Part shown: positions 35-40,105 of the stretch, in pieces
How positions within the stretch are numbered: position 1 is the first letter of the stretch
How the letters are laid out: each line of letters opens with the position of its first letter
Assembly: GCA_016183305.1 (NCBI GenBank)
Contig: JACPEW010000018.1
Span: 2,280-66,279, forward strand
Direction of reading: 5' to 3'
Length of the DNA: 64,000 nucleotides
From: Candidatus Daviesbacteria bacterium
GTDB taxonomy: Bacteria > Patescibacteriota > Microgenomatia > Daviesbacterales > UBA10151
Program-made: the position numbers and the translations under genes
Notes under the pieces: model-generated
The model's database searches: none
Told to the model about the DNA's origin: nothing
The model's input: the letters and a program-made list of their open reading frames with translations, nothing else

Positions 35-114
35 GTCATTGCGAGCGCAGCGTAGCAATCTTGATTATTAAATAAAGATCACTACGGTCCGTCTGTGGCG
101 GACCTCGTGATGAC
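35..114. repeat. Palindromic element copy (intergenic)
   Basis: GTCATTGCGAGC...AATCTTGATT...CGTGATGAC. Confidence 0.65.
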
Positions 115-253
115 AAAACAATTAGGAGATTTTGGAAACTCCTGGACTAATACGTGTCTTTGAGAATCTCCTTTTATAAGTGTTGCTGGTAATGTCTCAT
201 TTGTCTCATTTAGGCTCAATATGAGTCAATGACTATAAGGAAACCTTGTAAGC

Positions 254-706
254 TTGCTTGAAAGAGGTTTCCTTTCAAGCTTCGCTTATAGTAACACAAA
301 GGTTCTAGACAGGAGTGCTCAACTTGAACTGAGAGATTATAATAGTTTTGTGATTTACTATGTTTATATTCTTAGAACTTCTTCTAATACTTTATATATT
401 GGACAAACAAATAATTTAGAAAAAAGGCTAAAAGAGCATAAGGAAAAGAAAGCAAAATCTGCTAAATATCTTAGATATTTTTCCTCTTTTCAACTAGTTT
501 ACTCAGAAACATATAATTCCCGGGCAGAAGCTTTGAAAAGAGAATATCAATTAAAGCAATGGCCAAAAGCTAAAAAAGAAGCTTTGTTAGTCAGTCAAGG
601 CGGGCAGTGTCTTCCTTGCCCAAAATCTCAAAGGTTTCTAAGCCTCAAAAAGAACAACCATCAGTTCAGGAAAATCCTTAAAATCTTATGCACTGTTCCA
701 GGATAA
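254..706 (+). CDS. GIY-YIG nuclease family protein (YhbQ/UPF0213-like)
   Basis: The translation contains YYVYILRTSSNTLYIGQTNNLEKRLKEH...AEALKREYQLKQW, which is a GIY-YIG domain layout. The domain begins near an in-frame GTG at 350, so the true start may be 350. Confidence 0.7.
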   Translation: MLERGFLSSFAYSNTKVLDRSAQLELRDYNSFVIYYVYILRTSSNTLYIGQTNNLEKRLKEHKEKKAKSAKYLRYFSSFQLVYSETYNSRAEALKREYQLKQWPKAKKEALLVSQGGQCLPCPKSQRFLSLKKNNHQFRKILKILCTVPG

Positions 707-733
707 TAGTTTATCTGTTATATTATATGTAGC

Positions 734-1927
734 GTGAATTTGGATCTTGCCTGCAAGCAGCTTTTTTTAGAAAACAGAAGGTATAAAAGGAAATTCCAGT
801 ACACTGTGCCTTCTCCCACCACTTATCCCTATCAATGGTTATGGGATTCTTGTTTTCATATAATTATTTTGAATCATTTTAATGTTGAATATGCCAAAAA
901 AGAAGTTTTATCATTGCTATCCCAGCAATTCGAGAATGGCATGATTCCCCATATGATCTATTGGGACGACTTTACCGAAACTTCCTTTCCTCATATCAAG
1001 TGGGGTAAAAATGGCACAAGTACCTTAACCCAGCCTCCTATGGTTGCTTATGCTGTTTGGACAGTTTACCAAAAAGATAAAGACCTGAATTTTATAAAAT
1101 CAATATATCCAAAACTCTTCCATTATTATAGATATTTACTGACAGAACGGGATCCTCATGAGAATCACTTAATTGGTATTATGAATCCCGATGAGTCAGG
1201 AGAAGATAATTCTCCCCGTTTTGATATCCCCTTAGGCCTGCCTGCGCAGCATACTCTAAAAGAAAATACTAAAAAAAGGTTTGAGCTTATAAAACAAAAT
1301 ATAAAATGTAAATTTGATGCCCCTTTTTGTATGAGAAATTTTTTCTGGGTTAAGGATGCGCCTTTTAACTCTATCATGGTGGAAAACTTAAAACTGCTTT
1401 CAAAGATTGCCTTAGTAATTGGCAACCGCGATGATGCTTTGTATTTTAACCAAAAAGCAGATGAGATATCCTCAGCAATGAGGAAATTAATGTTAGAAGA
1501 CGGGATTTTTTGGTCTACCTATGGCGAGAATGGCAGTTACAAAAAGATTAAGGTCAAAACCTGGGCAGTTTTTGCCCCTCTTTTCGCCCAGATAGCAAGC
1601 AAAGCCGAGGCAAAAAATTTAGTTGATGATTACCTGCTTAACCCAAAAGAGTTTCAAACCAAATTCCCCGTTCCAACTACTTCTTTAAGCGAACCTTCAT
1701 TTGATCCTGAAGGGTTTTGGCGGGGGCCTATTTGGATGGGAACTAACTGGTTTATTTACAAAGGACTAATAAATTATGGTTTTCTAAAAGAAGCAAAAAC
1801 TATTAAAGAGGCTTCAGTTGCCTTGCTACAGAAGAGCGGTTTTAGGGAATATTTTAATCCTTTAACAGGAGAAGGTTTAGGAGCAGAAAACTTTACCTGG
1901 GGTGGATTGATTGTTGATATGGTTTAA
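734..1927 (+). CDS. GH63-like six-hairpin glycosidase (mannosylglycerate/glucosylglycerate hydrolase-like), paralog 1
   Basis: Motifs YPYQWLWDSCFH, TQPPM, NPDESGEDNSPRFD, WRGPIWMGTNWF and FREYFNPLTGEGLGA are present. It is a paralog of 10972..12138. Confidence 0.7.
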   Translation: MNLDLACKQLFLENRRYKRKFQYTVPSPTTYPYQWLWDSCFHIIILNHFNVEYAKKEVLSLLSQQFENGMIPHMIYWDDFTETSFPHIKWGKNGTSTLTQPPMVAYAVWTVYQKDKDLNFIKSIYPKLFHYYRYLLTERDPHENHLIGIMNPDESGEDNSPRFDIPLGLPAQHTLKENTKKRFELIKQNIKCKFDAPFCMRNFFWVKDAPFNSIMVENLKLLSKIALVIGNRDDALYFNQKADEISSAMRKLMLEDGIFWSTYGENGSYKKIKVKTWAVFAPLFAQIASKAEAKNLVDDYLLNPKEFQTKFPVPTTSLSEPSFDPEGFWRGPIWMGTNWFIYKGLINYGFLKEAKTIKEASVALLQKSGFREYFNPLTGEGLGAENFTWGGLIVDMV

Positions 1928-1936
1928 ACTTAAGTT

Positions 1937-8679: not shown

Positions 8680-8796
8680 TGTTTAAGTATATACCTGTTA
8701 GATTGCTGTCTTCAATAAGTTTCTTCTGTGTCCCCAGGATCACCACTATCTAAAAATATTTTGGTTTTTAAATTATTTGGCCTCATAAATATTATT

Positions 8797-8874
8797 GTCA
8801 TCTCGAGCGATTAGCGAGAGATCTTCCGGGCTTGGAAGATTCCTCACCCCGATTTAATCGGGGTTCGGAATGAC
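8797..8874. repeat. Palindromic element copy overlapping the tkt 3' end
   Basis: GTCATCTCGAGC...GAAGATTCCTCACCCCGATTTAATCGGGGTTCGGAATGAC. The tkt stop codon lies inside the element. Confidence 0.7.
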
Positions 8875-10718
8875 AACACAGTTTTAATAATACTCTCTTT
8901 AGAAATGCCTTCAAAATCCAGTAGTTCCTCTGGTTTACCACTACCAACTATTTTCCTGACTGCCAAAGAAATAACCCTGGGTGCCAATAGATTTTCACCC
9001 CCCAGGTGGAAAAGAGCGCTTCCTACTGCTTCAGCTATCCCTCCTTCCGGGAAATGATCCTCTACCACAATAATAGCTTTAGTTTCTTTGGCTGCTTTTT
9101 TTAAAGAAGCAGTATCTACTGGCTTAATGCTATATAAATCAATAACCCTAATTAAAATCCCTTCTTTTTTAAGCTCTTCGAAAGCTGCTAAAGCCTCATG
9201 CAGGGTTATTCCAGCTCCGACTACTGTTACTAGATCCTTAGAACTCTTTTTTAAGGTTTTGCTGCCACCTATTGGGAAATCTTCATCTGGTTTGTAAAGT
9301 ATTGGGGTATCTTTTCTGGTGGTACGGATGTAAACATTGCCCTCATGTTTTGCAGCCTCTTCGGTCAACTTTTCTGTAGATATAGCATCAGAAGGGTATA
9401 AAACAACACTGTTTAACATACTTCTAAACATTGCTATATCTTCCAAGCCCATTTGGGAAGGTCCATCTTCTCCTATGGAAACACCAGCATGGGAACCACA
9501 AACTTTAATATTAGCCTCAGAATACTGGCTCATCCTGATTTGGTCATGGGCCCGGGTTAAAAAAGCTGCAAAAGTAGAGATAAAGGGGATTTTCCCTCTT
9601 CTGGATAAGCCTAAGGCTGTTCCTGCCATATTCTGTTCGGCAATATACATTTCAAAAAAATGCTCAGGATAAGCTTTGCCAAATATTTCAGCATAAGTAG
9701 AATTTCCTACTTCTGCATCCAATACCACTATATTAGGATATTGGGGAAATATTCTTGCCAGAGCATTACCATAAGCCTTTCTAGTAGCTACTTGCTCTCC
9801 TTCTTGATAATTTACTTTTGAATTTTGACTTGTAGTTTTGACCTTTGACTTTTGACCTTTGACTTTTGTTGGCTTTTCCACCTTCCCTCTAATTTTCATA
9901 TCAATATCCCCTAATTCTTGTTTTGCTTTTTCCAGCTCTTCTGTTTTTAAGGCTTTCCCGTGCCAGCCATCCTTGTTTTGCAAAAATGACACCCCTTTAC
10001 CTTTAATTGTTTTGGCAATAATCATTGTTGGTAAACCCTTGGTATTAAAAGCTTCAGTATATGCTTTAGCAATATCACTAAATGAGTGGCCATCAATGGG
10101 AATAGCGTTCCAGCCAAATGCTTTGGCCTTTTTCTCATAAGCTTTTAAATCATGGCCATACATAGTTTTCCCCCGTTGGCCTAAACCATTAACATCTATA
10201 ATGCCTATTAAGTTATCTAATTTATAATGAGAAGCAAGTTGCAAAGCTTCCCAAACAGATCCTTCTGTCATTTCACTATCTCCCAGTAAAACAAAAGTTT
10301 TATATGGCAGCTTATCTAAATACTTAGCATTTAAGGCCATTCCTAAACCAATAGAAAGTCCCTGGCCCAAAGATCCCGTAGCTGCTTCTGCGTAAGGGAA
10401 AACTGGCCTGGGATGACCCTCTAATGCGCTTCCAATTTTCCGGTAAGTAGCAAGCTCCTCATCATTAATTTTTCCAGCCAAATAAAAAAGGGAATAGAAT
10501 AAAGGAGAGGCATGGCCTTTAGAAAAGATTAACCTGTCGTTATTAGGATTACTAGGATTGTTTAAATCAGCTCTAAAAAACCCTCCAAAAAGGAGGGAAA
10601 TCATTAGGTCTGTGGCTGAAAGAGAGGATGTGGGGTGGCCAGAGCCTGCTTGGCTGCTCATCAGCAAACTTAAGTAACGGCTGGCTTTTGCAAGTTTTAC
10701 TAAATACTGCCCACTCAT
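8844..10718 (-). CDS. tkt: Transketolase, N- and C-terminal halves fused
   Basis: SGHPTSSLS, GHASPLFY, GSLGQGLS and LLGDSEMTEGSVWEA are TPP-binding motifs. The C-terminal half starts at ATRKAYGNAL. A low-complexity linker, KVKGQKSKVKTTSQNSKV, joins the halves. Confidence 0.9.
   Translation of the reverse strand: MSGQYLVKLAKASRYLSLLMSSQAGSGHPTSSLSATDLMISLLFGGFFRADLNNPSNPNNDRLIFSKGHASPLFYSLFYLAGKINDEELATYRKIGSALEGHPRPVFPYAEAATGSLGQGLSIGLGMALNAKYLDKLPYKTFVLLGDSEMTEGSVWEALQLASHYKLDNLIGIIDVNGLGQRGKTMYGHDLKAYEKKAKAFGWNAIPIDGHSFSDIAKAYTEAFNTKGLPTMIIAKTIKGKGVSFLQNKDGWHGKALKTEELEKAKQELGDIDMKIRGKVEKPTKVKGQKSKVKTTSQNSKVNYQEGEQVATRKAYGNALARIFPQYPNIVVLDAEVGNSTYAEIFGKAYPEHFFEMYIAEQNMAGTALGLSRRGKIPFISTFAAFLTRAHDQIRMSQYSEANIKVCGSHAGVSIGEDGPSQMGLEDIAMFRSMLNSVVLYPSDAISTEKLTEEAAKHEGNVYIRTTRKDTPILYKPDEDFPIGGSKTLKKSSKDLVTVVGAGITLHEALAAFEELKKEGILIRVIDLYSIKPVDTASLKKAAKETKAIIVVEDHFPEGGIAEAVGSALFHLGGENLLAPRVISLAVRKIVGSGKPEELLDFEGISKESIIKTVLSFRTPIKSG
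9811..9870. repeat. TTTGAC-type tandem repeat forming the tkt linker
   Basis: tttacttttgaattttgacttgtagttttgacctttgacttttgacctttgacttttg. Confidence 0.7.
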
Positions 10719-15215: not shown

Positions 15216-15791
15216 ATGGAGAAGATAACCTTGGGTGGAGGATGTTTTTGGTGCACAGAGGCAATCTTTAGGAGGCTAAAAGGGGTAACTAAGGTTACCT
15301 CTGGGTATGCTGGTGGCAAAGGAGAAAATCCAACATATTCAGAAGTTAGTACTGGAGAAACTGGGTTTGTAGAGTCTGTCCAAATTGAGTTTGACCCCAA
15401 GATTCTATCCCTTGATAATTTATTAGATGTTTTTTGGGCTACTCATGATCCTACTACTTTAAACAGGCAGGGACCAGACGTAGGCACCCAATATAAATCA
15501 ATGATTTTTTATCAGGGTGAGAAACAAAAGGAGATTGCTGAAAAGTCTAAAGAAAAAATGGATAAATCTGGGGAGCTAAAGGGTAAGATAGTTACACAGA
15601 TTCTATTTTTGGACAAATTCTATACAGCTGAGGAATATCATCAAAACTATTATGAGAAAAATAAGGATACAAATTCCTACTGTTCTTTGGTAATAGATCC
15701 AAAGATTGAGAAATTAATTAATAAGTTTAATAACTTAGTAAGAGAAGAAGGGGCTGCAATGACAAGTGGGGCTTGCGAGGACAGGAGATAG
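15216..15791 (+). CDS. msrA: Peptide-methionine (S)-S-oxide reductase
   Basis: GGGCFWCTEAIF active-site motif and TGFVESVQIEFDP. Confidence 0.9.
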   Translation: MEKITLGGGCFWCTEAIFRRLKGVTKVTSGYAGGKGENPTYSEVSTGETGFVESVQIEFDPKILSLDNLLDVFWATHDPTTLNRQGPDVGTQYKSMIFYQGEKQKEIAEKSKEKMDKSGELKGKIVTQILFLDKFYTAEEYHQNYYEKNKDTNSYCSLVIDPKIEKLINKFNNLVREEGAAMTSGACEDRR

Positions 15792-15801
15792 AAAGGAATT
15801 T

Positions 15802-16206
15802 ATGAAAGAACTACGTTCCCACCTTAAAGGTGGGAAGCTAAATAAAAAACTGACACTTGAGCAATATAATATTTGTTTTCTAAAGGGTACTGAGCCTCCT
15901 TTTTCTGGAAAATATACTAATAATCATGAGCCAGGGATGTATGCTTGTGTAGTTTGTGGTACTAAACTTTTTTCTTCTGATAGTAAGTTTGACTCAGAAA
16001 CTGGCTGGCCTTCTTTTGATAGACCTTTTGCTAACAAGAATATTTCTTATTCTGAAGATTATTCTATGGGCATGAGAAGGATTGAGGTTATGTGTAAAAA
16101 ATGTGGTTCCCACTTAGGCCATGTGTTTGATGATGGCCCAACTTCTACTGGCAAAAGATTCTGTATCAATTCCCTAGCCTTAGATTTCATTGCGAATCAA
16201 GACTAA
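15802..16206 (+). CDS. msrB: Peptide-methionine (R)-S-oxide reductase
   Basis: CVVCGTKLF...GWPSF...CKKCGSHLGHVFDDGP (Zn CxxC pairs and catalytic region). The start is set at MKELRSH. Confidence 0.9.
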   Translation: MKELRSHLKGGKLNKKLTLEQYNICFLKGTEPPFSGKYTNNHEPGMYACVVCGTKLFSSDSKFDSETGWPSFDRPFANKNISYSEDYSMGMRRIEVMCKKCGSHLGHVFDDGPTSTGKRFCINSLALDFIANQD

Positions 16207-17036
16207 CGAAGTGTCATTCCCAAAAAAGAAATTCCAGCTTGAAATAAAAGGTATAATCCAAAAACAATACTTAATAATCCTGAAGCTGTTACCAGGTAGT
16301 GGTTTATAATTTTACTTTCCCTTTTTAAGAGGATAATTGAGGCCCCTATTCCTAAAGTTAGAATCATCATGCCAGTAATGATACCAATATGGAAAACAAG
16401 CAGGTAAATTATTGATAAAACTGTATTTTGTATGGTGCTTAGAATTAACAAAGCTATGGCAGTGCTGCCTGCTAAACCATGGATGAGCCCAATTACCAGT
16501 GGTCTGATAGTTTGAAATAATCCTAAATGATGAAAATTGCCAGCTATGGATTTCATAGTTGTCATTCCGAGCGAGGCCAGAGGCCGAGTGTAGGAATCTT
16601 GATTAAGAGAGATTGTCACGCCCTTCGGGCTCGCAATGACAGAATGTAAGTGGAGATGGGAATGTTGGTGGCCTTGGTTATCTAAATGTGAATGCTTATG
16701 GATAGTTACTGGTGTAAGTTTGTCTTGTATTTTTGAAGATATGCCAGATAAATTTAAAACTCCTAAGATAATTAACATTAGACCTACAACAAGCTCCATA
16801 ATTTGTTCCAAGCCTGAAGGTACTACAAAAGAGAATATAATAATTGGGATTGCTACTAAAGTAACTGTGATAGAATGCCCTATTCCCCACAAGGCACCTA
16901 TTAAAGCAGTATTTAAAATCCCTTTCTTTTGTTTAGCAATAATAGTGGTGATTGCTACAATATGGTCAGGATCTGTGGCATGACGCATTCCTAAAAGAAA
17001 ACTTAAACTTAAAATACTAATTATTTGCGCATACAT
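16203..17036 (-). CDS. Nickel/cobalt transporter-like membrane protein (HX4DH motif) carrying a palindromic-element insert
   Basis: RHATDPDHIVAI signature, a His-rich loop (HKHSHLDNQGHQHSHLHLH) and IHGLAGS. The repeat at 16561..16640 is read through in frame. Confidence 0.65.
   Translation of the reverse strand: MYAQIISILSLSFLLGMRHATDPDHIVAITTIIAKQKKGILNTALIGALWGIGHSITVTLVAIPIIIFSFVVPSGLEQIMELVVGLMLIILGVLNLSGISSKIQDKLTPVTIHKHSHLDNQGHQHSHLHLHSVIASPKGVTISLNQDSYTRPLASLGMTTMKSIAGNFHHLGLFQTIRPLVIGLIHGLAGSTAIALLILSTIQNTVLSIIYLLVFHIGIITGMMILTLGIGASIILLKRESKIINHYLVTASGLLSIVFGLYLLFQAGISFLGMTLR
16561..16640. repeat. Palindromic element copy inside the transporter CDS
   Basis: GTCATTCCGAGCGAGGCC...GGAATCTTGATT...GGGCTCGCAATGAC. 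Confidence 0.75.
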
Positions 17037-17096
17037 AAACTTAGATTATATCCTTTTTGTTAGAATATATATAATATAAATAACTAACAAAGTAGT

Positions 17097-17555
17097 ATGG
17101 GTAATGATCAATTAGGGCAATTCCTCAAAACAGTAGATAAATCTAAATTTACTAACAAGCCTTATATAAAAAAATTGGAAAAGCCCTGGGGATACGAACT
17201 TCACTTTGTTCCAGAAGGATTACCATATATGGGCAAGCTGCTGCATATTCAGGCTGGTAAGAGATTGAGTTTACAAGCCCATGATGCAAAACTGGAAAGC
17301 TGGTTTTTATTAAATGGTCAGGCAGCTGTTATTTGGGAAAATACTAATGGTGATCTTGTTGAGACAAAAATGGAGAATGAAGTAGGTTATACTTGTAATT
17401 TAGGCCAAAAACACAGGTTGATGGGTATTACAGATTGCGGTATTTTGGAAGTTTCCACCCCAGAGTTAGGTAATACTTATAGATTAGAAGATGATTATGC
17501 CAGGCCTACAGAAACAGAAGAAATGAGAAAAGATCCAAACAGAGGCTGGAAATAA
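17097..17555 (+). CDS. Cupin-domain protein (type II mannose-6-phosphate-isomerase-like)
   Basis: KPWGYELHF...LSLQAHD...HRL is a cupin motif pattern. Confidence 0.55.
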   Translation: MGNDQLGQFLKTVDKSKFTNKPYIKKLEKPWGYELHFVPEGLPYMGKLLHIQAGKRLSLQAHDAKLESWFLLNGQAAVIWENTNGDLVETKMENEVGYTCNLGQKHRLMGITDCGILEVSTPELGNTYRLEDDYARPTETEEMRKDPNRGWK

Positions 17556-17602
17556 TCTCACATGCTTGCTAGAGATATTACTATAAAGAATTATTCCCAA
17601 TA

Positions 17603-19072
17603 ATGAATTCAAATCCAGAACTTAAAGCTGTTGTAATACAAGGTGGTATGGGAGTTGGTGTTTCCAGGTATCCCTTAACAAGAGCAGTTTCTCTGGCAGG
17701 AGAAAAATTAGGGGTTCCAATCATGGGAACCTTGTCTGGAACAGGAATCGGACCGGTAGTTGCAAGGATATTGCAAAATGGTGATCCAGGGGGACATTAC
17801 CAAAGAGCTTTCGAAGCTTTCCCGAATCAGAAAATGGCAGAGCATGTTTGGAATACATATTATATCGAAGGTGGAAAAGCTGCGGATAAGTCATATAAAC
17901 CAACTCCGATGGTGAATTTTGTGCTAGGTCAGAATGTTGCAGAGCTAATAATTTGTGCTAACTTTGCAGAGGTTTGGTTAGGTAAGCAAGATCATAATCG
18001 GCCAATAGCTATTAATTACCTTGAAAAGATACAAACACCCCACCTTCCGGAGCTTTATGGTGCGATGTTGGCCGGAGTGGATGTTGTGATAATGGGAGCA
18101 GGGATTCCGGATCAGGTGCCAGGTGTCTTGGATAAGTTTTCCAGAGGTCAACCGGCGTCGTATCTGATAGATGTGGATGGAAAGAGATTACCGGAGAATG
18201 CAATGATATTTAACCCTTCTGTATATACTCATGTCACTCAGTTAAAGCGCCCAGATTTTTATGCCATTGTAGCTTCCAATGTTTTAGCTAAGGTTCTCAA
18301 AGTAAGACAAAAAAATATTGGAGGAGTGAATGGATTCATTGTAGAAAATTCTAAAGCAGGAGGACATAATGCGCCTCCAAGAGAAAAGAACCAATTTAAC
18401 AAAAGAGGTGAGCCTGTTTATGGGCCAAAGGATGAAGTTAATCTAAAAGAACTGGCAAATTTAAATGTACCATTTTGGTTGGCAGGTGCTTATGCCGATC
18501 CTCAGAAGATAGCGGAAGCTATTGTGGCGGGTGCGTCAGGCATTCAGGCAGGTAGCATATTTGCTCTTTGTGAGGAATCAGGGTTAAGAGACGATCTAAA
18601 GCGGTCGATCATAAAACTCGCTTTTGAGGGCAAATTGGATGTTATCTCAGATCCTAGATGTTCCCCTTCCGGTTTTCCTTTTAATGTGGTACAGCTTTCG
18701 GATACTATATCTGATCCAAAAGTTTATGGGGCAAGACTCAGGATTTGTGATATAGGGTATCTCCGTCAGGCTTATAGGGAAAATGATGAGGGTGGGGTTC
18801 GTTTTCATTGTCCCGCTGAACCGGTTAAAACATATACTAAACGTGGGGGGAGGATTGAAGACACTGAGGGCAGAGTGTGTCTTTGTAACAACCTTTTCGC
18901 TGCAGCTGGTTTAGGTCAAATAAGAAACGGTGAATTAGAGCCGGCAATAGTAACCTTAGGTCATGACTGGGGATTTATTCGATATTTAATTACTAATGGA
19001 AATGGAAGGTATACAGCAGAAAATGCAATTACCTACTTATTTGGGAATCAAGCTCTGAAGGCTGCTGTTTAA
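17603..19072 (+). CDS. Nitronate monooxygenase / NPD-like FMN oxidoreductase
   Basis: GGMGVGVS, GAGIPDQ and ENSKAGGHN segments. The composition is visibly GC-richer than the neighbours. Confidence 0.65.
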   Translation: MNSNPELKAVVIQGGMGVGVSRYPLTRAVSLAGEKLGVPIMGTLSGTGIGPVVARILQNGDPGGHYQRAFEAFPNQKMAEHVWNTYYIEGGKAADKSYKPTPMVNFVLGQNVAELIICANFAEVWLGKQDHNRPIAINYLEKIQTPHLPELYGAMLAGVDVVIMGAGIPDQVPGVLDKFSRGQPASYLIDVDGKRLPENAMIFNPSVYTHVTQLKRPDFYAIVASNVLAKVLKVRQKNIGGVNGFIVENSKAGGHNAPPREKNQFNKRGEPVYGPKDEVNLKELANLNVPFWLAGAYADPQKIAEAIVAGASGIQAGSIFALCEESGLRDDLKRSIIKLAFEGKLDVISDPRCSPSGFPFNVVQLSDTISDPKVYGARLRICDIGYLRQAYRENDEGGVRFHCPAEPVKTYTKRGGRIEDTEGRVCLCNNLFAAAGLGQIRNGELEPAIVTLGHDWGFIRYLITNGNGRYTAENAITYLFGNQALKAAV

Positions 19073-19268
19073 TTCTGGATTGTTAAAATATTGAAGCAGT
19101 TTTTGAGTAGTTTCTGTGGGACTTTTTATTAGATACTTTTGGCCTATCCCTAAGCCAATAAAAAAACTACCAGTAAGATCAGGAAATTTTTACCAAAGGC
19201 TTTGGGGTTAAGTTTATTGAACATATTGTCAGCTTGTTAAAATTGTACTAAAGTATTGTAAATTACTT

Positions 19269-20177
19269 ATGGATATTTTATCAATAGTTTTAATTGTGGC
19301 AGGTTTGGTTTTATTTGAGACTATCTCTTCAGTTGATAATGCAGTGATTAATGCTGAAGTTTTATCCACCATGAGCAAAAGGGCCAGAAGATGGTTTCTT
19401 TTGTGGGGGCTTTTACTGGCTGTTTTTTTACTCAGAGGTTTATTGCCATGGGGTATTCTTTGGGCTACTAATCCAGGGCTAGGTCCAATTGGAGCATTTG
19501 GAGCAGCTTTAAGTTCAGATCCTAAAGTGGTAGAGGCAATTGAGAAATCCTCCCCTATTTTACTGTCAGGAGGAGGAATATTTTTGATATTTCTTTTTTT
19601 CCACTGGTTATTTTTGGAACCAAAAAACTACGGATTAAAAAGTGAAAGGTTTTTCCATTCCCAAGGGGTGTGGTTTTATGCTGTGGTCTCAATTATTTTA
19701 GCTGTGATAGTCTGGTTTGCCCTGCAGGAAAACCCTTTCATGGCCTTTGGAGCAGTAGTAGGATCAACAGCCTTTTTTATAACTCATGGGTTTAAGGAAA
19801 ATGCGGCAGCAGAGGAAAAGAAACTTCTTTCTACCAGCAGAAGTGATTTTAGTAAGATTCTGTATTTGGAAGTGATAGATGCCACCTTTTCTATAGATGG
19901 AGTGATCGGAGCATTTGCTTTTACCCTCTCTGTACCGCTTATTTTATTAGGTAATGGTATTGGGGCTTTTGTTGTCAGGCAGTTAACTATTGGTAATATT
20001 GACAGGATTAAAAAATATATTTATTTAAAAAACGGGGCAATGTATTCTATCCTTTCCTTGGGAATAATCATGATTTTAGATAGTTTTGGTTTTCATATTC
20101 CATCCTGGTTTACTCCTGTTGTGACAGCAATAATTGTGGGCTATTTCTTACTCAAATCCAGAAAAGCTATTGCTTAG
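19269..20177 (+). CDS. DUF475/TerC-like integral membrane protein
   Basis: ETISSVDNAVINAEVL and a second FSIDGVIGAF repeat. Confidence 0.55.
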   Translation: MDILSIVLIVAGLVLFETISSVDNAVINAEVLSTMSKRARRWFLLWGLLLAVFLLRGLLPWGILWATNPGLGPIGAFGAALSSDPKVVEAIEKSSPILLSGGGIFLIFLFFHWLFLEPKNYGLKSERFFHSQGVWFYAVVSIILAVIVWFALQENPFMAFGAVVGSTAFFITHGFKENAAAEEKKLLSTSRSDFSKILYLEVIDATFSIDGVIGAFAFTLSVPLILLGNGIGAFVVRQLTIGNIDRIKKYIYLKNGAMYSILSLGIIMILDSFGFHIPSWFTPVVTAIIVGYFLLKSRKAIA

Positions 20178-21639
20178 TTAGCACCACCATAAAATTATCC
20201 AAATAAACTGCTTTCCAGGTATTATCTTGGGCAACAGAAGCTAAAAAGGACCTGCCCCAAGGGGTTTGGTCTGTAATAGAAAAAATTATAGTTTTAAAAT
20301 TATATTGTTTTTCTAGATTTTTAAATTGGGAATAATCTGCCTGGGTTGGTATATATACTTCAGAAAAGAATTTTGCAGGATAAGCCTCTGGTCTGCCATC
20401 CACAAAAACCTGGTATTTGGGATATCCCCGGTAAATAATATAACTGCCTATATCAAAATTATTATAGATAGGTCCTGGTAAATTATTACTTAAGGTAAAA
20501 TCTAAAGCTTTTTTACCACTTTCCACAAACCTTAAATTGGGAAATTGGTTTGTTTTAAAATTATTAAGAGTAGTTATGATAAGAAGTATAGCTGTGATTA
20601 CTGTGGCAGTTTTGGTTAACCAATTTGATTTTAAAGGACCAAAGTTTTGTAAAACAGCTGGTAAGGACAAAAACACCAGATATGGAAAGCTTCTGACATT
20701 TAATGAAGCTAAAGCAGCACCAAAAGCAGCCAGTAAAATATTCTTAATCAATCCTTTTTTGTCATCCTGGACGATTAGTAAAGGATCCCTAGATTTTTTA
20801 ATCTTGAGATTCCTCACTATATCCGGAATGACGACTAGTATTGATAACAAGATAATTCCTAAGCTTATCTTTACCCAAATAAAATTAGGATTCTGGAAGT
20901 CAATACTTTCTAGTAGAAAGATGGTTTGGTTTTCTACAATGGTATAGCCATAGTTTTTAGTCACATTAAGAGGATAAAGAAATCCAGCTAAGCCATTTGG
21001 GTTAACTAAACTTGTTAATACTGATAGTATAAGAATAATAACTGATATCTTTAGCTTCCCACTTCCGATGTGGGAATGTAGTTTTTGGTAGGTTAAGTCA
21101 ATTAGAAAAATGGCCTGTAAGATTAGACCTACAAAAAAGTATATATGAGTATTAACCCAGATTAATTGGATAAAGGGTAATAAAAACACCAGCTTTGTAG
21201 GCCCTCTTAAATATTTTTCCAAAATATAACAAGTGCTAACAGTAAACAAAAAGCTAAAAAATTCTGGCCTTAGTTCTATTCTTTCCCTTAAAGTATGGAA
21301 AAAAATAAAACCTATAGGTAAAAGCAGAATAGAGTTATTTTTTGGGACCATTTTTAATATTAACCAAACTGAAGTTAGATAAATAACTAACTTGAAGACT
21401 AATAGAAAGTTAAGATTAATCTGGCTTACTAAATAAGTCCAAACTTCAAATAACCAATGGGTATTAATAAAAGGAAAATTAGGGTTAGTATAGGAAAAAA
21501 GGTTGGTTGTAGGAACAGCCTTTGTCTGCCAAATTACCTCCCCAAGTTTTAAATGTCTCCCTAAATCCTGGTCAAAAGAATAATCTGGCTTAAATATAAA
21601 AGAAAAAACAAAGAAAGTTAGGAGAATTTTAACCCGCAT
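20167..21639 (-). CDS. Polytopic membrane protein with C-terminal soluble domain (possible GT-C-like), carrying a palindromic-element insert
   Basis: About 10 hydrophobic helices. The repeat at 20761..20832 encodes VIPDIVRNLKIKKSRDPLLIVQDD in frame. Confidence 0.4.
   Translation of the reverse strand: MRVKILLTFFVFSFIFKPDYSFDQDLGRHLKLGEVIWQTKAVPTTNLFSYTNPNFPFINTHWLFEVWTYLVSQINLNFLLVFKLVIYLTSVWLILKMVPKNNSILLLPIGFIFFHTLRERIELRPEFFSFLFTVSTCYILEKYLRGPTKLVFLLPFIQLIWVNTHIYFFVGLILQAIFLIDLTYQKLHSHIGSGKLKISVIILILSVLTSLVNPNGLAGFLYPLNVTKNYGYTIVENQTIFLLESIDFQNPNFIWVKISLGIILLSILVVIPDIVRNLKIKKSRDPLLIVQDDKKGLIKNILLAAFGAALASLNVRSFPYLVFLSLPAVLQNFGPLKSNWLTKTATVITAILLIITTLNNFKTNQFPNLRFVESGKKALDFTLSNNLPGPIYNNFDIGSYIIYRGYPKYQVFVDGRPEAYPAKFFSEVYIPTQADYSQFKNLEKQYNFKTIIFSITDQTPWGRSFLASVAQDNTWKAVYLDNFMVVLTKQ
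20761..20832. repeat. Palindromic element copy inside a membrane-protein CDS (72 nt)
   Basis: GTCATCCTGGACG...AATCTTGAGATTCCTCAC...TCCGGAATGAC. Confidence 0.75.
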
Positions 21640-21661
21640 TTAAAAATTGTACCATGAAAGC

Positions 21662-21693
21662 CTGCGTGATAGCTTGCGTGATTATTGCGTGAT
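21662..21693 (+). repeat. 32-bp triple-9-mer block upstream of fic-1
   Basis: CTGCGTGAT-AGC-TTGCGTGAT-TA-TTGCGTGAT. It overlaps the TATAAT at 21693..21698. Confidence 0.7.
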
Positions 21694-21706
21694 ATAATAT
21701 AGATAT

Positions 21707-22765
21707 ATGTTAGAACCTATCTATAATATTACTTCTACCATACTTTCCCGGATTGCAGAAATTGCTGAAATAAAAGCAGCTGTGGAAAGGTCCAGGGTAC
21801 TACCTTTAAATGAAGCACAGCTCAGAAGGCAGGCAATCCTCAGGATGGCTCATACTTCTACTTCTATTGAAGGCAACAAATTAGCCCAATTTGAAGTAGG
21901 AAAAGTTTTGGAAGGTAAAACAGTCAGGGCTTCCCAAAAAGATATTTTGGAGGTAGAAAACTATTATAGTGCTTTAAAACTGTTGGATGAGCTGTCTAAG
22001 AAAAAAGGTGATATTGCTGAGCAGGAAGTTTTAAGCTTGCATAAAGCAGTAGTCAGTGGTTTAGCGGACAAGGAAAAGGTTGGTAATTTTAGACCTGCAG
22101 ATGTGTATGTGCTTGATGATCTAGGTGATGGCAGAGAGATGCTAAGATTTAAGGCCCCCCCAGCCCCGGAGGTAAAGAAATTAATAGCAGACTTATTAGA
22201 GTGGTTAAAGGAATCAAAAAAGCAAGATTTACATCCTGTGATTAGGGCAGGCATCCTACATTTACAATTTGTGACTATCCACCCTTTTACTGATGGCAAT
22301 GGCAGGGTGGCCAGATTACTCACTCAGCTCCAGTTATACAGGGATAATTGGGATTTTAGAAAGATTTTAGTTTTAGAAGATTATTATAACCGGAACAGGA
22401 TGTCTTACTATAATGCTGAAAATAAATCTCAGGGTAGAAACTATCAGAAAGATATGGATTTTACCCCGTGGTTAGAATACTTTACCACTGGGTTTTTAGT
22501 AGAAGCTAGAAAAGCTTTGGAACAAATTCAATCAATTGGTTATGGAAAAGTCAGTAAAAAGAGTGAGCAAATATTTTTGGATAGGGATGAGATTCAGATT
22601 ATGGATTTTTTAACTACCACAGGCAGAATTACTTCTGAGGATGTGGTGGATATTTTAAAGCTAGCCAAAAGAAGTGCTCAGCTTAAGCTAAAAGGATTAT
22701 TGGATAAGAAATTAATTGAATCCCAAGGTAAAGGTCCCAGTACCTATTATATTATTGCACGATAA
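21707..22765 (+). CDS. fic: Fic family protein (class II type, N-terminal inhibitory motif, C-terminal wHTH-like region)
   Basis: HPFTDGNGRVARLL is the Fic motif, and TSTSIEGN matches the (S/T)xxxE(G/N) inhibitory helix. Confidence 0.9.
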   Translation: MLEPIYNITSTILSRIAEIAEIKAAVERSRVLPLNEAQLRRQAILRMAHTSTSIEGNKLAQFEVGKVLEGKTVRASQKDILEVENYYSALKLLDELSKKKGDIAEQEVLSLHKAVVSGLADKEKVGNFRPADVYVLDDLGDGREMLRFKAPPAPEVKKLIADLLEWLKESKKQDLHPVIRAGILHLQFVTIHPFTDGNGRVARLLTQLQLYRDNWDFRKILVLEDYYNRNRMSYYNAENKSQGRNYQKDMDFTPWLEYFTTGFLVEARKALEQIQSIGYGKVSKKSEQIFLDRDEIQIMDFLTTTGRITSEDVVDILKLAKRSAQLKLKGLLDKKLIESQGKGPSTYYIIAR

Positions 22766-22786
22766 ATTGCGGGATTATTGCGCGAT
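22755..22786 (+). repeat. 32-bp triple-9-mer block at the fic-1 3' end
   Basis: TTGCACGAT-AAA-TTGCGGGAT-TA-TTGCGCGAT. The spacing is the same as in the upstream block, and 25 of 32 positions are identical by my alignment. Confidence 0.7.
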
Positions 22787-22865
22787 TATTTAAACACACT
22801 TGCTTTTTACTAATCCGTATGGGACAATTTAGGGGTGAGTAGAGTGCATTTAGTGTTTTTACAGT

Positions 22866-22903
22866 AATTCACCTCCACAGAAAAAAAGAAAGAGAGGTGA
22901 ATT
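22866..22903 (+). promoter_or_regulatory. SD-sequestering hairpin in the 5' leader of the RRM protein gene
   Basis: A perfect 10-bp stem forms between AATTCACCTC (22866..22875) and GAGGTGAATT (22894..22903). The 3' arm contains the GAGGTGA ribosome-binding site, 4 nt from the TTG start. Confidence 0.55.
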
Positions 22904-22906
22904 TTT

Positions 22907-23167
22907 TTGAATAACAAGAAATTATTTGTTGGTTCTTTACCGTGGGCTGTTGATGATGCCAGACTTGCTGAGATTTTTGCTCAGGCTGGTAATGTTGTTT
23001 CAGCACAGGTTGTTAAAGACCGTGAAACAGGCAGATCCAGAGGATTTGGTTTCGTTGAGATGTCTACTGATGAAGAAGCTCAAAACGCAGTCAAGAACTT
23101 AAATGGCAGTGATATTGAAGGTCGCAAGATCGTTGTTAATATCGCTCGTCCAAGAGAGGACCGGTAA
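22907..23167 (+). CDS. RRM-type RNA-binding protein
   Basis: KLFVGSLPW (RNP2) and RGFGFVEM (RNP1). Confidence 0.9.
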   Translation: MNNKKLFVGSLPWAVDDARLAEIFAQAGNVVSAQVVKDRETGRSRGFGFVEMSTDEEAQNAVKNLNGSDIEGRKIVVNIARPREDR

Positions 23168-23195
23168 TTGTTTCATTAAATTTGAAACAAGGAAA

Positions 23196-23225
23196 AGAGG
23201 CTGGAGAAATCTGGCCTCTTTTTTA
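23196..23225 (+). terminator. Rho-independent terminator after the RRM gene
   Basis: AGAGGC...GCCTCT stem followed by a T-run. Confidence 0.7.
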
Positions 23226-23891
23226 ATGGGTAGCTAGATCCAGTTTAGGAAGAAGTTTTTTGGCAGCCAGGTAATTTAAAGTAAATTTAACCAGTAAATA
23301 AGAGGCAGCTATACCTGAGGCAAATAACAACCTTTCCGCAATTACAACTGGGATTAATCCCTTCCAGACTGCAGCTGGAAGATTAAAAGCCCAGATCCAG
23401 ACTGCTCCACCTACTGCATGAGCTGTAAAGGTTGAGCCTAAGCTTTTGATAAATAAGTTATCTCTTTTAAAGTAAGCAAGGATAGGGATTATCCAAAACA
23501 TTAAGGCATAATAAGGAACCTGTCTGCCTATTGGGTGTGCTATAAAAGCTAAGATGCAAAGGAGAGGAACTGTCAGGAGCCATTTGCCTTGGTATTTTTT
23601 GTTAGTGATGATGGCAAAATAGGCTACAGCAAATAGAGTTGGAAATAACCTTATAACAGCTCCTGTGGTAAGCGGTGTTTGTTTTATGAACAAATTAATC
23701 ACTTCTACTGCAAAGACTGAAGCTATACCCAAGACCGGTCCCAAAAAGCCTCCTGCCATTGGACCAAAGAAATCAAAAAGAGTAAAGGAAACATTTGAAC
23801 CCATGATCTTATTAAAAGGAATTTGTAAGCTGATAAAGCCTACTATAGAAAAAAGCGCTAAAAAGAATAGTTTTTTCCTGGTGTTTAACAT
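23223..23891 (-). CDS. Polytopic membrane protein, unknown function
   Basis: Six or more TM helices. The start is set at MLNTRKK because the longer ORF runs into tRNA-Leu. Confidence 0.45.
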   Translation of the reverse strand: MLNTRKKLFFLALFSIVGFISLQIPFNKIMGSNVSFTLFDFFGPMAGGFLGPVLGIASVFAVEVINLFIKQTPLTTGAVIRLFPTLFAVAYFAIITNKKYQGKWLLTVPLLCILAFIAHPIGRQVPYYALMFWIIPILAYFKRDNLFIKSLGSTFTAHAVGGAVWIWAFNLPAAVWKGLIPVVIAERLLFASGIAASYLLVKFTLNYLAAKKLLPKLDLATH

Positions 23892-36645: not shown

Positions 36646-36774
36646 TTGCTCAGTTGAAGGGTAGGACCAAGAAACTAATTGGCAGATTTTTTTGATTTTG
36701 ATTGCCGTGCTATCTTGTCAGTACTTAATAAATAAATTTACCAAGTATTTCCTACCCTCAACCTAAGTGAGCAA
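36646..36774. repeat. Imperfect long inverted repeat in an intergenic region
   Basis: TTGCTCAGTTGAAGGGTAGGA (36646..36666) faces TCCTACCCTCAACCTAAGTGAGCAA (36750..36774). The terminal 7 and 9 bp are complementary. Confidence 0.5.
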
Positions 36775-36871
36775 TTTATATAATAACTGGGATCTTTTTA
36801 CAGTAATTTTCCTTACTTAGAAATTGTAATTAAAATAACATTTTGTGAAAACTAAATTATTTTTTAGCTTT

Positions 36872-37120: not shown

Positions 37121-37278
37121 ATTTTAAAATTATATCACTATTTTAGTATGCTATACTTTACAATCACTAGCAGAAAACCCCGCTTTCTTAAAGCAGGGAT
37201 GAATGCTTTTGTGATTACAGTCTTCCGCGGAGCAGGTGGTAGATCTGGATAGGGTTTTCTGTAGCCTCTTGTAAACTT

Positions 37279-37482
37279 TCAAAGAAAACCGCGGGCTTTC
37301 AGTCTGCGGAAGTTTATAGAACCTTTTAAAGAAAGAAAATCTACAACTGGTTTAATTGGGGCTTCATTATTATCTTTAAGTTCAAATACAATCTCAGTAT
37401 TAGGCAAAATACCTAATCTTTTGCGGATCAGTGCAGGAATTGTGGCTTGTCCTTTTTGAGTTATTGAAGTAGTAAATTGCAT
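37279..37482 (-). CDS. AbrB/MazE/SpoVT-type antitoxin-like DNA-binding protein (orphan)
   Basis: QKGQATIPALIRKRLGI is a swapped-hairpin motif. No toxin ORF follows. Confidence 0.65.
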   Translation of the reverse strand: MQFTTSITQKGQATIPALIRKRLGILPNTEIVFELKDNNEAPIKPVVDFLSLKGSINFRRLKARGFL

Positions 37483-37539
37483 GTTATTACTCCATCAAAT
37501 AAGTATTACTTTATCAATAGTGTAATACAAAATCTCTTT

Positions 37540-37615
37540 TGGCGCCCCCAGAGGGATTCGGACCCCCGGCCTAATCGTTAGAACCGATTTGCTCTATCCA
37601 CTGAGCTATAGGGGC
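37540..37615 (-). tRNA. tRNA-Arg (anticodon TCT), CCA encoded
   Basis: The reverse complement reads GCCCCTATAGCTCAGTGGATAGAGC...GTTCTAA...GGTCCGAATCCC...GGGGGCGCCA. Confidence 0.9.
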
Positions 37616-37749
37616 ATTTCACCCCGATACACATCGGGACTCAATGTAAATTATACAGGGGTTATTTTACCAATTCGGAACTTATTTAGCAAAGCGGACA
37701 ATATCCTACCTAGTACGTACCCGAAGCGGGTAACAAGGTAGAAATGAGG

Positions 37750-38709
37750 CTACACCCAGGGTTTTTCTATAGTCTGTAAATAAACCACCAGTTTCTTTAA
37801 GCCTTCTTCTAGACTGACCTTAGGCTCCCAGCCCAAAATAGTCCTGGCTTTGGTGATATCCGGGCAACGTCTAGTTGGATCATCTTGGGGCATATCTTGA
37901 ACAAACGATACTACTGAAGAAGCGTTTGTTAACTGCTTAACTTTCTCAGCCAGTTCCAAAATAGTAAACTCATCAGGATTTCCTAAATTATATACTTCCC
38001 CGCTATGGCCTTTTTCCATAGCTGCAATAATTCCTTCTATCAAGTCTGATACAAAGCAAAAAGATCTGGTTTGTGTGCCATCTCCAAAAACAGGAAAAGG
38101 CTTATTCTGTAGAGCAGCATTAACAAATTCAATCACTACCCTGCCATCTGAGTCCATCCTTGGTCCATAAGTATTAAAAATCCTTACTATCCTGCCATCT
38201 AGACGCCCGGAATAGGCAAAAGCAGAAACTATAGTTTCCCCAAATCTTTTTGCCTCATCATAAACAGCCCTTGGTCCTGTGGTAGAAACATTGCCTTTAT
38301 AATCCTCCTTTTGAGGGTGTTCTAAAGGATCACCATAAACTTCTGAGGTAGAAGCAAATAAAAATTTTGCTCCTCTTGCCAAAGCTTCGCTGCATAAATT
38401 CCAAGTCCCAAAACTATTAACCTGCATTGTTTCAAAAGGTAAAGCTTGATAGCTTTTAGGATTATTTTTATTAGGAGATGCAGGAGAAGCCAGGTGGCAA
38501 ATAGCATCAAAATCTAAATCCTGGGGAAAAGAGTCTGAAGCATCAGCCTGAACAAATTCAAAATCAGGGCTGTTTTGTAAGTGAGCAATATTAAAAGGGT
38601 TACCAGTTAAAAGATTATCTATGCAAATTACTTGATGGTCAAGTTCAATTAATTTATCACAAAGGTGAGATCCTAAAAACCCAGCCCCTCCAGTAACAAC
38701 TATTCTCAT
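37750..38709 (-). CDS. UDP-glucuronate decarboxylase / UDP-xylose synthase-like SDR
   Basis: VTGGAGFLGSHL, YDEAKR and the overall UXS-like sequence. Confidence 0.85.
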   Translation of the reverse strand: MRIVVTGGAGFLGSHLCDKLIELDHQVICIDNLLTGNPFNIAHLQNSPDFEFVQADASDSFPQDLDFDAICHLASPASPNKNNPKSYQALPFETMQVNSFGTWNLCSEALARGAKFLFASTSEVYGDPLEHPQKEDYKGNVSTTGPRAVYDEAKRFGETIVSAFAYSGRLDGRIVRIFNTYGPRMDSDGRVVIEFVNAALQNKPFPVFGDGTQTRSFCFVSDLIEGIIAAMEKGHSGEVYNLGNPDEFTILELAEKVKQLTNASSVVSFVQDMPQDDPTRRCPDITKARTILGWEPKVSLEEGLKKLVVYLQTIEKPWV

Positions 38710-38744
38710 GTTTTAATTGTATATTGTATATTACCAATTGTACA

Positions 38745-40067
38745 TTAAATTTTAAACCTTCTGTCCGAAAGAAAGGGGTTAGGTTGTCTCCATATTGAGG
38801 AGGAACCTAATAATATTCCCCTTTGCAAGGTAAATTCTCCATATTTATTATTAATTTGATCCAAGGCTTTGGTAATTATTTCTCTTTTCTTAACTTCTAC
38901 TAAAAAGCTTAAATTTTGAGGAGTTTGGGATTTTAAATTAGAAATAGAAACTCCAATCATTCTAATTTTTTCACCACTCCAGATCTGATTAAAAATTTTC
39001 CAAGCTGCATTAAAGATTTCCAGCCCATCACTAGTCCATAAAATAGTTTGTTGCATTCCATTGCTTTCAAAATCAACCTCTCTGTACCAGCAATGGATTG
39101 TTTTAGCTGTTAATTTTTTGGCCCGGAGTTTTCTGGCTATTAATTCTGTGAGTTTTAATAATATTTGCTTAATTTCTAATAAGTTATCAGTATCATGATC
39201 AATAGTATGCCTGTGGCCAATTGATTTAACTTCTTCTTTTTCATAGAAAGGTACAACAGGAGAATAATCTATGCCCCTGGCCATATTGTAAAGAGTTTGG
39301 CCATAACTTTTAAAAGAAGCAAGTAAGGCTTTTAAAGGAGCTTTTCTTAAGGTTTTAAAATCAAAAATTCCTAAGTTATTTAGTCTTTTTTTAATCCTGG
39401 ATCCAATTCCACAAATGTCATCTAAGGCAATTTTATCTAAAACTTTTATAGCAGTTTCTTGATCAGGAATCACTACTAAACCATCTAGTTTTTGTAAAGA
39501 ACCAGCCAGTTTTGCCATTAATTTGTTATACGAGATACCAATAGAACAGGTAATATATTCCCCTATTTCTGATTTGATCCTTCTTTTAATCTCTAAGGCT
39601 ATATTTTTTGTCATTGCGGGAAACGAATCTTCGAGTGACGAAGCAATCCTTTTCTTTGTCATCCCAGACTTGATCTGGGATCCATATAAATAATTGTCTA
39701 TATAGATTCCCACTTTCGTGGGAATGACAGGAGAAGGCATTTCTAAAAATGCTTCATCTATAGAAAACACTTCTAGGTATGGGCTGTAGTCTTTTAGGAT
39801 GGTCAAAAAACGCTTAGTTGTCTCTGAATATTTATCAGAGTCTCCAGAAACAAGAATAATTTGTGGGCAAAGTTTTTGAGCCTCCCAAATCTGCATACCA
39901 GTTTTTACCCCAAACCTTTTAGCCTCTACAGAAGCTGCCCCTAAAACAGTTCTTTTCATCCTGTCTCCACCTGTTATTCCAATTGGTTTGCCACGGAGTC
40001 TTGGATTGGCTTGTTGTTCTACTGTGGCAAAATAGCTATTAAAATCAATATGTAAAATAACTCTCAT
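38745..40067 (-). CDS. dinB: DNA polymerase IV (Y-family) carrying a 40-codon palindromic-element insert
   Basis: ILHIDFNSYFATVE, SIDEAFLE and SIGISYNKLMAKLA are present. The insert lies at 39610..39728, between the DEAF motif and the next conserved helix. The start is set at MRVILH. Confidence 0.85.
   Translation of the reverse strand: MRVILHIDFNSYFATVEQQANPRLRGKPIGITGGDRMKRTVLGAASVEAKRFGVKTGMQIWEAQKLCPQIILVSGDSDKYSETTKRFLTILKDYSPYLEVFSIDEAFLEMPSPVIPTKVGIYIDNYLYGSQIKSGMTKKRIASSLEDSFPAMTKNIALEIKRRIKSEIGEYITCSIGISYNKLMAKLAGSLQKLDGLVVIPDQETAIKVLDKIALDDICGIGSRIKKRLNNLGIFDFKTLRKAPLKALLASFKSYGQTLYNMARGIDYSPVVPFYEKEEVKSIGHRHTIDHDTDNLLEIKQILLKLTELIARKLRAKKLTAKTIHCWYREVDFESNGMQQTILWTSDGLEIFNAAWKIFNQIWSGEKIRMIGVSISNLKSQTPQNLSFLVEVKKREIITKALDQINNKYGEFTLQRGILLGSSSIWRQPNPFLSDRRFKI
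39610..39728. repeat. Composite (about 1.5 copies) palindromic element inside dinB
   Basis: GTCATTGCGGGAAACGAATCTTCGAG...GTCATCCCAGACTTGATCTGGGATCC...CCCACTTTCGTGGGAATGAC. Confidence 0.75.
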
Positions 40068-40074
40068 ATTTATT

Positions 40075-40105
40075 GTCATTCTTCACTCTCCGGGTTCAGG
40101 ATGAC
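40075..40105. repeat. Minimal 31-nt palindromic element
   Basis: GTCATTCTTCACTCTCCGGGTTCAGGATGAC, located between dinB and the upstream ORF. Confidence 0.55.

Follow-up and report, generated by a model that had tools for sequence, protein, structure and literature searches.

Small palindromic repeats with an unpaired CGTC tag were described by Di Nocera, De Gregorio and Rocco (2013; PMC3733652) as a superfamily of repetitive extragenic palindromes (REPs), in which the tag is often TGTC or CCTC. In these CGTC REPs the stem opens with A-T and T-A pairs at positions 1 and 2, measures 8-9 bp around a 4-5-nt loop (loop length differs in some of the listed families) and is followed by a short tail; most form 'HH' (head-to-head) dimers, with the tags outside and a spacer between the units. 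CGTC-1 of Neisseria is dRS3, and in R. conorii CGTC-1 and CGTC-4 are the Rickettsia palindromic elements (RPEs) RPE-6 and RPE-4, respectively. Intragenic CGTC dimers encode 20-30 residues, many of them in genes for DNA repair or error-prone polymerases. The repeats 'apparently lack a dedicated transposase' and were reported from five phyla, the candidate phyla radiation (CPR) not among them (PMC3733652). Here we describe dimers of this kind, several of them within genes, in a 64,000-nt stretch of a CPR genome, hereafter the window (Candidatus Daviesbacteria bacterium, assembly GCA_016183305.1, contig JACPEW010000018.1, positions 2,280 to 66,279 of the forward strand).

A nuclease that cuts such hairpins was described by Chenal et al. 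(2025; PMC11893778). The 28-nt Neisseria repeat NTS, CGTCATTCCCGCGMAVGCGGGAATCYRG, contains dRS3, and 'Ssn-related motifs' (SRMs) are found across many phyla. The nuclease SsnA, 94 aa long with GIY-YIG as its one domain, binds the hairpin exclusively in single-stranded form and makes its cut upstream, on one strand; in Neisseria, cutting requires the three bases before the palindrome, and binding requires the C that follows. The motifs typically flank the ssn gene, in an arrangement that the authors liken to an insertion sequence. The SRM system is further defined by a genome that encodes an Ssn nuclease (cd10448 clade, blastp E-value below 1e-10 to Neisseria SsnA) with the motifs on its flanks.

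The repeats of the window are head-to-head dimers of TGTC/CGTC-tagged REP hairpins, in the superfamily of dRS3/NTS, the SRMs and RPE-4/-6. The pairs are real, their small DNA hairpins belong to a family of repeats that is known and widespread, and all six copies listed in an earlier note on this DNA stand at the positions given there. The loci with which we compared them are labelled L001-L086; among them L085, from a close relative, is syntenic with positions 15375-23817 of the window at 80-92% nucleotide identity. The copies, and one solo end, are as follows.

34..115, copy 1, head-to-head dimer with hairpins at 35-60 (+) and 77-114 (-); intergenic, with stops in six frames
8796..8875, copy 2, head-to-head dimer across the 3' end of the transketolase gene; stops in six frames
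15756-15765, solo right end GCAATGACA, an addition to the six copies
16560..16641, copy 3, head-to-head dimer inside the NicO gene, read as SVIASPKGVTISLNQDSYTRPLASLGMT; 84 nt relative to the empty L085 site
20760..20833, copy 4, head-to-head dimer inside the gene for a 490-aa membrane protein (VIPDIVRNLKIKKSRDPLLIVQDD)
39609..39729, copy 5, three hairpins at 39610-39648 (+), 39658-39682 (+) and 39705-39728 (-); inside dinB
40074..40106, copy 6, single 33-nt hairpin between a small open reading frame (ORF) and dinB

Each half-site follows the layout (T/C)GTC, AT-NNN, inner part, NNN'-AT, C, which is kept in all ten credible half-sites returned by a strict detector (GTC-AT-NNN, loop, NNN'-AT-C) and in the one-mismatch partner within copy 3. 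The tag is TGTC in nine of the ten and in that partner, and CGTC in the remaining one. At every half-site GTC precedes the palindrome and C comes right after it, and the tails after the stems are mostly CTT. Copies 1-4 consist of two half-sites in inverted orientation, tags outward, with a spacer of about 12-22 nt; copy 5 has three half-sites, the outer tags again pointing outward, and copy 6 is one hairpin bearing both tags. By tag, A-T/T-A stem start and, in copies 1-5, head-to-head pairing, the copies conform to the CGTC REPs. Two hairpins also fit the published stem and loop sizes, with 8 bp and a 5-nt loop at 39658-39682 and 8 bp and a 4-nt loop at 39705-39728, whereas the other nine of eleven have a 5-bp outer stem and an inner part of 11-25 nt with a small internal loop and an inner stem. 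The inner stems vary between copies (GGTCCG/CGGACC, CCCCGAT/ATCGGGG, GCCC/GGGC). The earlier picture of a single long element with complementary termini is replaced by one of independent inverted hairpins, two in number and three in 39609-39729: the ends of copy 1, ATTGC and GTGAT, are mutually non-complementary, and each pairs with an internal partner. The internal 'AATCTTGA-like core' of that description is present as sequence, but its identity is corrected to the conserved C plus the tail after the first hairpin.

Chance accounts poorly for these structures. The strict detector returned 11 half-sites in the window, far beyond the mean of 1.07 and the maximum of 4 in 200 Markov-1 simulations; one of them, at 10372-10417 inside the transketolase gene with the tag GGTC, is probably a chance match, leaving the ten credible ones. 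Pairs of TGTCAT...ATGACA at most 200 nt apart, detected with no demand for AT-NNN stems, number six; 200 shuffles had 1.2 on average and 4 at most. All six copies fold better than their own shuffles (z of -3.1 to -6.8 on at least one strand), and their G+C content is 39-55%, against 36% for the window. A whole-copy multiple alignment conserved TGTCAT only. An outer-ends-only detector (GTCAT-NNN...NNN'-ATGAC) was dropped as noisy, with 76 matches against 46 in a shuffle; the paired half-site detector that replaced it gave 18 against 2. By paired half-site detection the elements are sparse in most CPR loci, with 18 in 788 kb. Rfam returned no family for the elements, whether searched with gathering cut-offs or up to E 1, and the NCBIfam library gave nothing for six insert peptides, E-values up to 10 included.

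One hairpin ties the window to Neisseria base for base. The hairpin at 39705-39728, GTCATTCCCACGAAAGTGGGAATC, fits dRS3, ATTCCC-N8-GGGAAT (match at 39706-39725), a pattern that occurs once in the window and in none of 100 shuffles, the other half-sites having different stems. Tag and tail included, it recurs without a mismatch four times in 1.5 kb of N. gonorrhoeae DNA, where a gene for a 94-aa GIY-YIG protein and seven perfect copies of the published NTS consensus also lie. This ssnA stretch (L086, NZ_CP119140.1 1881675-1883156) comes from a 2.17-Mb record filed as a PLSDB 'plasmid' that is evidently the N. gonorrhoeae chromosome, and the ssnA gene is unannotated in the record's table.

Four genes of the window, all on the minus strand, are affected by the repeats.

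8844..10718 (-), transketolase gene; C-terminus remodelled by copy 2
16203..17036 (-), NicO-family nickel/cobalt transporter gene; insert in a His-rich loop
20167..21639 (-), 490-aa membrane-protein gene; no Pfam match
38745..40079 (-), dinB (DNA polymerase IV); probable start 40067

Of four genic copies said earlier to be read through in frame, those in NicO, the membrane protein and DinB proved to be so; in the transketolase gene, copy 2 provides only the C-terminal end, nine codons and a stop (SFRTPIKSG*) that use another reading frame of the element, and the transketolase of a relative terminates without this segment. The three internal inserts are missing from orthologs, that of the membrane protein except in a close relative. 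The NicO insert, 28 codons or 84 nt, is absent from 15 of 15 orthologs, including one that is 86% identical and lies on L085, whose DNA is empty at this position. The C-terminal 'GMT' of NicO (16213-16220) was considered as an extra copy and rejected as a chance resemblance with no pairing partner. In the membrane protein, an insert of about 22 residues follows a transmembrane helix; it is common to the window and L085 only and absent from 15 other orthologs. Between these two genomes both of its stems show compensatory changes (ATTCC/GGAAT to ATTTC/GAAAT and ATCCT/AGGAT to ATTCT/AGAAT), indicating that pairing matters; the comparison of the shared insertion with its flanks, 61% in the element beside 82% and 64% in the two flanks, is uninformative. 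A further ortholog, P0369, carries another element-type peptide, VIPAKAGIHNDSGFLIKSGMT, at a different position, which points to independent insertions in this family also. In all three proteins the insertion is in frame, absent from orthologs and tolerated by the fold, as in the RPEs. The claim of a palindromic family with RPE-like insertions in genes is thereby upheld, and the Rickettsia precedent goes beyond analogy, with RPE-4 and RPE-6 in the same superfamily; the phenomenon is also less new than first thought, because the 2013 survey already contains intragenic in-frame dimers.

The DinB insert, about 40 residues, lies between the catalytic SIDE strand and the next helix. The loop after SIDExFLE has 8-14 residues in 60 of 110 orthologs and 47 here; it reaches at least 25 residues in 32 of the 110, and 17 of these 32 loops start with element-type peptides (VIA, VIP). 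A solved Pol IV structure has 7 residues where the window DinB has 43, and the AlphaFold2 model of the latter has a predicted local distance difference test score (pLDDT) below 50 at residues 119-145, flanked by a strand (109-114) and a helix (149-172) that are both predicted with confidence. In nucleotide sequence, the site is occupied by four different GTCAT...ATGAC elements, one each in the window, L082, L083 and L084, and is empty in L081; half-decayed elements are kept as coding sequence in some DinB orthologs. The loop adjoining the active site is a site of repeated landing or retention. Among the orthologs P0001-P0120, repeat-like peptides of other kinds (ESSRKSLDSRLLT, EILRLTSFAQDD, KNCNLKPV) also occur in this loop; a second hot spot for insertions comes after CWYRxA, and smaller inserts occur at about five more positions in single orthologs. 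At its N-terminus, the annotated DinB (440 aa), like its orthologs, begins four codons downstream of an ATG inside copy 6.

Most probably the inserts are read into protein, where they add 20-40 residues to surface loops, and are not removed, because the genic copies are free of stops and the non-coding copies are not. In the window, each of the three internal copies is open in two of six frames, the host frame included, whereas the two non-coding copies are open in none. The contrast is seen again among 17 dimers from the window and related CPR loci: ten, all deep in long ORFs, can be read through in the host frame, and four copies that are clearly non-coding are closed by stops in every one of the six frames. 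The earlier note had also raised self-removal at the RNA or protein level. On that reading the inserts would be small intron-, ribozyme- or intein-like elements, lost before the protein functions. The elements do fold strongly as RNA; yet the contrast between stop-free, in-frame genic copies and stop-bearing non-coding ones is unexpected for spliced sequence, elements of 72-119 nt conserve tags and stems alone and no catalytic core, decayed half-elements survive as coding sequence in DinB orthologs, and Rfam, as stated above, offers no match. We consider removal barely credible.

A gene-bearing counterpart of the dimers occurs in a Daviesbacteria relative. In L084, a gene for a 96-aa GIY-YIG protein (9664-9951) of an Ssn-like 'type B' lies between the small ORF and dinB, bracketed by TGTCATTCCTGTGAACACAGGAATC and GATCCCCCTGTTCAGGGGGATGACA in a unit of 370 nt; with 55% identity over 94 aa to the Neisseria protein and flanking hairpins on both sides, it falls within the Ssn definition. 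The junction between the small ORF and dinB is thus found in three states, empty in L083, with a 33-nt hairpin in the window (copy 6) and with the full hairpin-ssn-hairpin unit in L084, and the left junction, GTGAAT|TGTCAT, is the same in the L084 unit and in copy 6. Within the L084 dinB itself, a 117-nt element matches the right end of the unit at 46 of 48 bases and then shows similarity to the 3' end of ssn, which suggests an internally deleted unit, derived in the manner of a miniature inverted-repeat transposable element (MITE). Taken together, the three junction states and the internally deleted copy argue for a unit whose insertion and decay resemble those of an insertion sequence with miniature derivatives. 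L085 also has, at 9150-9166, a minimal 16-nt palindrome, TGTCATTGCAATGACA, consisting of two tags and stem starts with nothing between, perhaps a footprint or the product of a maximal deletion; at the orthologous position the window retains only GCAATGACA (15756-15765).

Association of hairpins with nuclease genes extends well beyond this locus. A scan of species genomes with an alignment of the relatives of the window's own GIY-YIG protein yielded 80 GIY-YIG loci, and 16 of them have a strict half-site within 200 nt of the gene, often on both sides, where about 0.008 would be expected per locus. Each of the 16 proteins encoded by hairpin-flanked genes is a better match, by score, to the Ssn-like type B than to the window's own protein, 'type A'. 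At L076 (Nitrospina sp. LS_NOB), 47 strict half-sites surround an ssn-type gene in 17.4 kb, a very high density that compares with that of the Neisseria arrays. The type A gene of the window is the following.

353..706 (+), small single-domain GIY-YIG nuclease gene, type A (UPF0213-like); Pfam E 2e-17

On this evidence, we consider it likely that the tagged-REP dimers are miniature, gene-less hairpin-ssn-hairpin units that are translated when they lie in genes. The dimers would behave as gene-less versions of that unit and turn up at new sites, genes included. An Ssn-type nuclease encoded elsewhere in the genome would act on single-stranded DNA, recognising the hairpins in folded form, one per strand because they are inverted, and would spread or maintain the elements. 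Selection would retain only those genic insertions that are in frame and stop-free, and the surviving genic copies would be translated as 20-40 extra residues in tolerant loops and would be present in the mature proteins.

Several points weigh against this account. To our knowledge, Ssn has nowhere been reported to join or move DNA. No shared direct repeat that could represent a target-site duplication was seen at the six junctions or in filled-versus-empty comparisons, where insertion boundaries are not exactly fixable at 83% flank identity. The variety at the dinB site could have arisen by repeated insertion, by gene conversion among copies or by divergence of one old insertion, and translation of the inserts is deduced from nucleotide sequence alone. 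The published SRM pattern, HGTCWYN(0-2)YYVSBRHN(0-5)WNVSBRGN(0-2)RNCYNB, has no match in the window, because nine of the eleven hairpins have the 5-bp outer stem and 11-25-nt inner part in place of 8-9 bp and 4-5 nt; in the 80 GIY-YIG loci the pattern misses the hairpins flanking ssn-type genes everywhere but L080, and so is narrower than the family. Chenal et al. go no further than the insertion-sequence likeness of the arrangement (PMC11893778). Nor does the window supply the enzyme: tblastn found no type B gene or remnant within its 64 kb, and its only GIY-YIG protein, type A, lies outside the Ssn definition: it resembles UPF0213 more closely than the Neisseria protein, with 35% identity to the latter (E 2e-9, small database). 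We had taken this type A protein as the leading partner candidate, on the strength of its single GIY-YIG domain, its distant kinship to SsnA and the position of copy 1, 239 nt upstream of the gene. It was dropped, for in none of the 39 closest type A loci (L001-L039) does a strict half-site lie within 200 nt, the nearest being at -403, many type A genes follow a tRNA gene and have other conserved hairpins, and the hairpin-flanked genes are type B in 16 of 16. We regard a type A partner as very unlikely, and the gene at 353..706 appears to be a neighbour only, of a different subtype from the hairpin-flanked Ssn.

The dimers might alternatively be structural or regulatory DNA or RNA elements maintained by the host, for example as stabilisers of mRNA 3' ends, gyrase sites or recombination sites, and spread by recombination or gene conversion with no dedicated enzyme, the genic copies being tolerated passengers. 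Most REPs lie directly downstream of genes and many are argued to act as RNA (PMC3733652), and copy 2 sits at a gene 3' end; it is followed by no T-run, however, and so is not an intrinsic terminator. The compensatory stem changes, the sparseness of the elements in CPR loci and the different variants at one dinB site, which conversion could produce, would also fit host maintenance. It accounts less well for the clean presence or absence of elements at the NicO and dinB-upstream sites between close relatives, for the adjacency, in L084, of the gene-bearing unit and a copy of it with an internal deletion, and for hairpins tightly flanking Ssn-type genes in 16 unrelated genomes. We judge host maintenance unlikely and keep to the reading of the dimers as miniature derivatives of the ssn unit. 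A bolder version would make Ssn GIY-YIG nucleases and CGTC/TGTC dimers a true single-strand DNA mobile system, the GIY-YIG counterpart of RAYT/REPIN and IS200/IS605, with the hairpin-ssn-hairpin unit autonomous and the 60-120-nt dimers non-autonomous; this we put forward tentatively, as possible rather than probable.

Further repeats and genes were observed alongside these elements. The type A protein of the window has about 23 extra residues near its C-terminus, GGQCLPCPKSQRFLSLKKNNHQF (~653-690), relative to 34 homologs, with no hairpin pair seen there. Conserved hairpins (gccattcgactcgcttcgctcgctcatggctatagcc; aatgtcctgagcga...gagtcgaagga) stand ahead of many type A genes, and small CPR GIY-YIG genes lie directly 3' of tRNA genes (Arg, His, Gln) at L082 12371-12830, L084 7180-7560, L001, L031, L035 and L041; in L082 and L084 the tRNA 3' end is repeated after the GIY-YIG gene, and L041 has tandem units. 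These tRNA-adjoining genes have the look of mobile cassettes that target tRNAs and differ from the TGTC elements. Coding DNA of the window also contains a second hairpin repeat, CTACGTTCCCAC-loop-GTGGGAAGCTA, at 15812-15840 (start of the msrB/SelR gene) and 21048-21086 (490-aa membrane-protein gene), the latter copy being 97% identical over 39 nt to L085 9095-9133 in the L085 msrB/SelR gene. At 46260-46326 (+) lies a match to the Rfam DUF3800-II RNA (RF02961; 65.4 bits, gathering score 43.2). The adjoining ORF, 45537-45995, encodes an NlpC/P60 protein and not DUF3800, and no ORF of at least 80 aa lies between the match and 46724.

The kind of repeat described here is already known: in-frame CGTC-REP dimers, two RPE families among them, and their preference for repair polymerases were described in 2013, and the cutting nuclease in 2025. 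New are the phylum, the high genic share, the DinB hot spot and the comparative link of miniature dimers to hairpin-ssn-hairpin units. The known superfamily of CGTC REPs, dRS3/NTS and RPE-4/-6 is extended to the CPR, where the repeats are largely genic in very compact genomes (the 10 of 17 dimers deep in long ORFs). The link also joins two papers, the 2013 survey that saw no dedicated enzyme and the 2025 study of a GIY-YIG nuclease that cuts the hairpins, and Ssn as the mobilising enzyme is now directly testable, given the junction states and the deleted copy. If the mobile system is real, conserved proteins of small CPR genomes would receive recurrent in-frame loop insertions, as in Rickettsia, and the 'missing transposase' of the CGTC REPs would be supplied, together with a mechanism for protein remodelling of the RPE-4/-6 type. 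The inserts account for many odd predicted peptides in CPR (VIPAKAGIQ..., ...LRFARNDx, ...SLGMT) and for many length differences between orthologs.

Compared with known systems, the window copies resemble the CGTC REPs in their unpaired tag, A-T/T-A stem start, short tail, outward-tagged inverted pairing and intragenic coding dimers; they depart from typical members in tails that are mostly CTT instead of CCA, mostly longer inner parts and 12-22-nt spacers, and from the five reported phyla in their host, a member of the Patescibacteria (CPR). Kinship with RPE-4 and RPE-6 is drawn from the published superfamily assignment. Like RPE-1 of Rickettsia (Ogata et al. 2000; Claverie and Ogata 2003), they are in-frame palindromes at fold-compatible positions of unrelated conserved genes; RPE-1 is about 150 bp with a conserved peptide domain, whereas the window copies measure 72-119 nt and conserve only tags and stems. 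A classical MITE, with terminal inverted repeats, a target-site duplication and descent from a DDE element, differs from the window copies, in which no target-site duplication is visible. With the Neisseria NTS and SRMs they share GTC upstream and C downstream of the stem and one identical hairpin, and the Daviesbacteria relative has an ssn, 55% identical to that of Neisseria, between such hairpins in inverted orientation. Only 2% of N. meningitidis NTS copies lie inside genes, whereas three of six in the window are internal and read through, and Neisseria NTS copies form large clusters, in contrast to the isolated dimers of the window, which has no ssn gene. The repeats fall outside the REPIN/RAYT definition, with a TGTC/CGTC tag in place of GTAG and a GIY-YIG nuclease in place of an HUH tyrosine transposase, and strand transfer by Ssn has never been reported. 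Like REPIN-RAYT and IS200/IS605, however, they combine inverted short hairpins, an unpaired tetranucleotide tag and an enzyme acting on folded single-stranded DNA with a gene-bearing unit flanked by the same hairpins.

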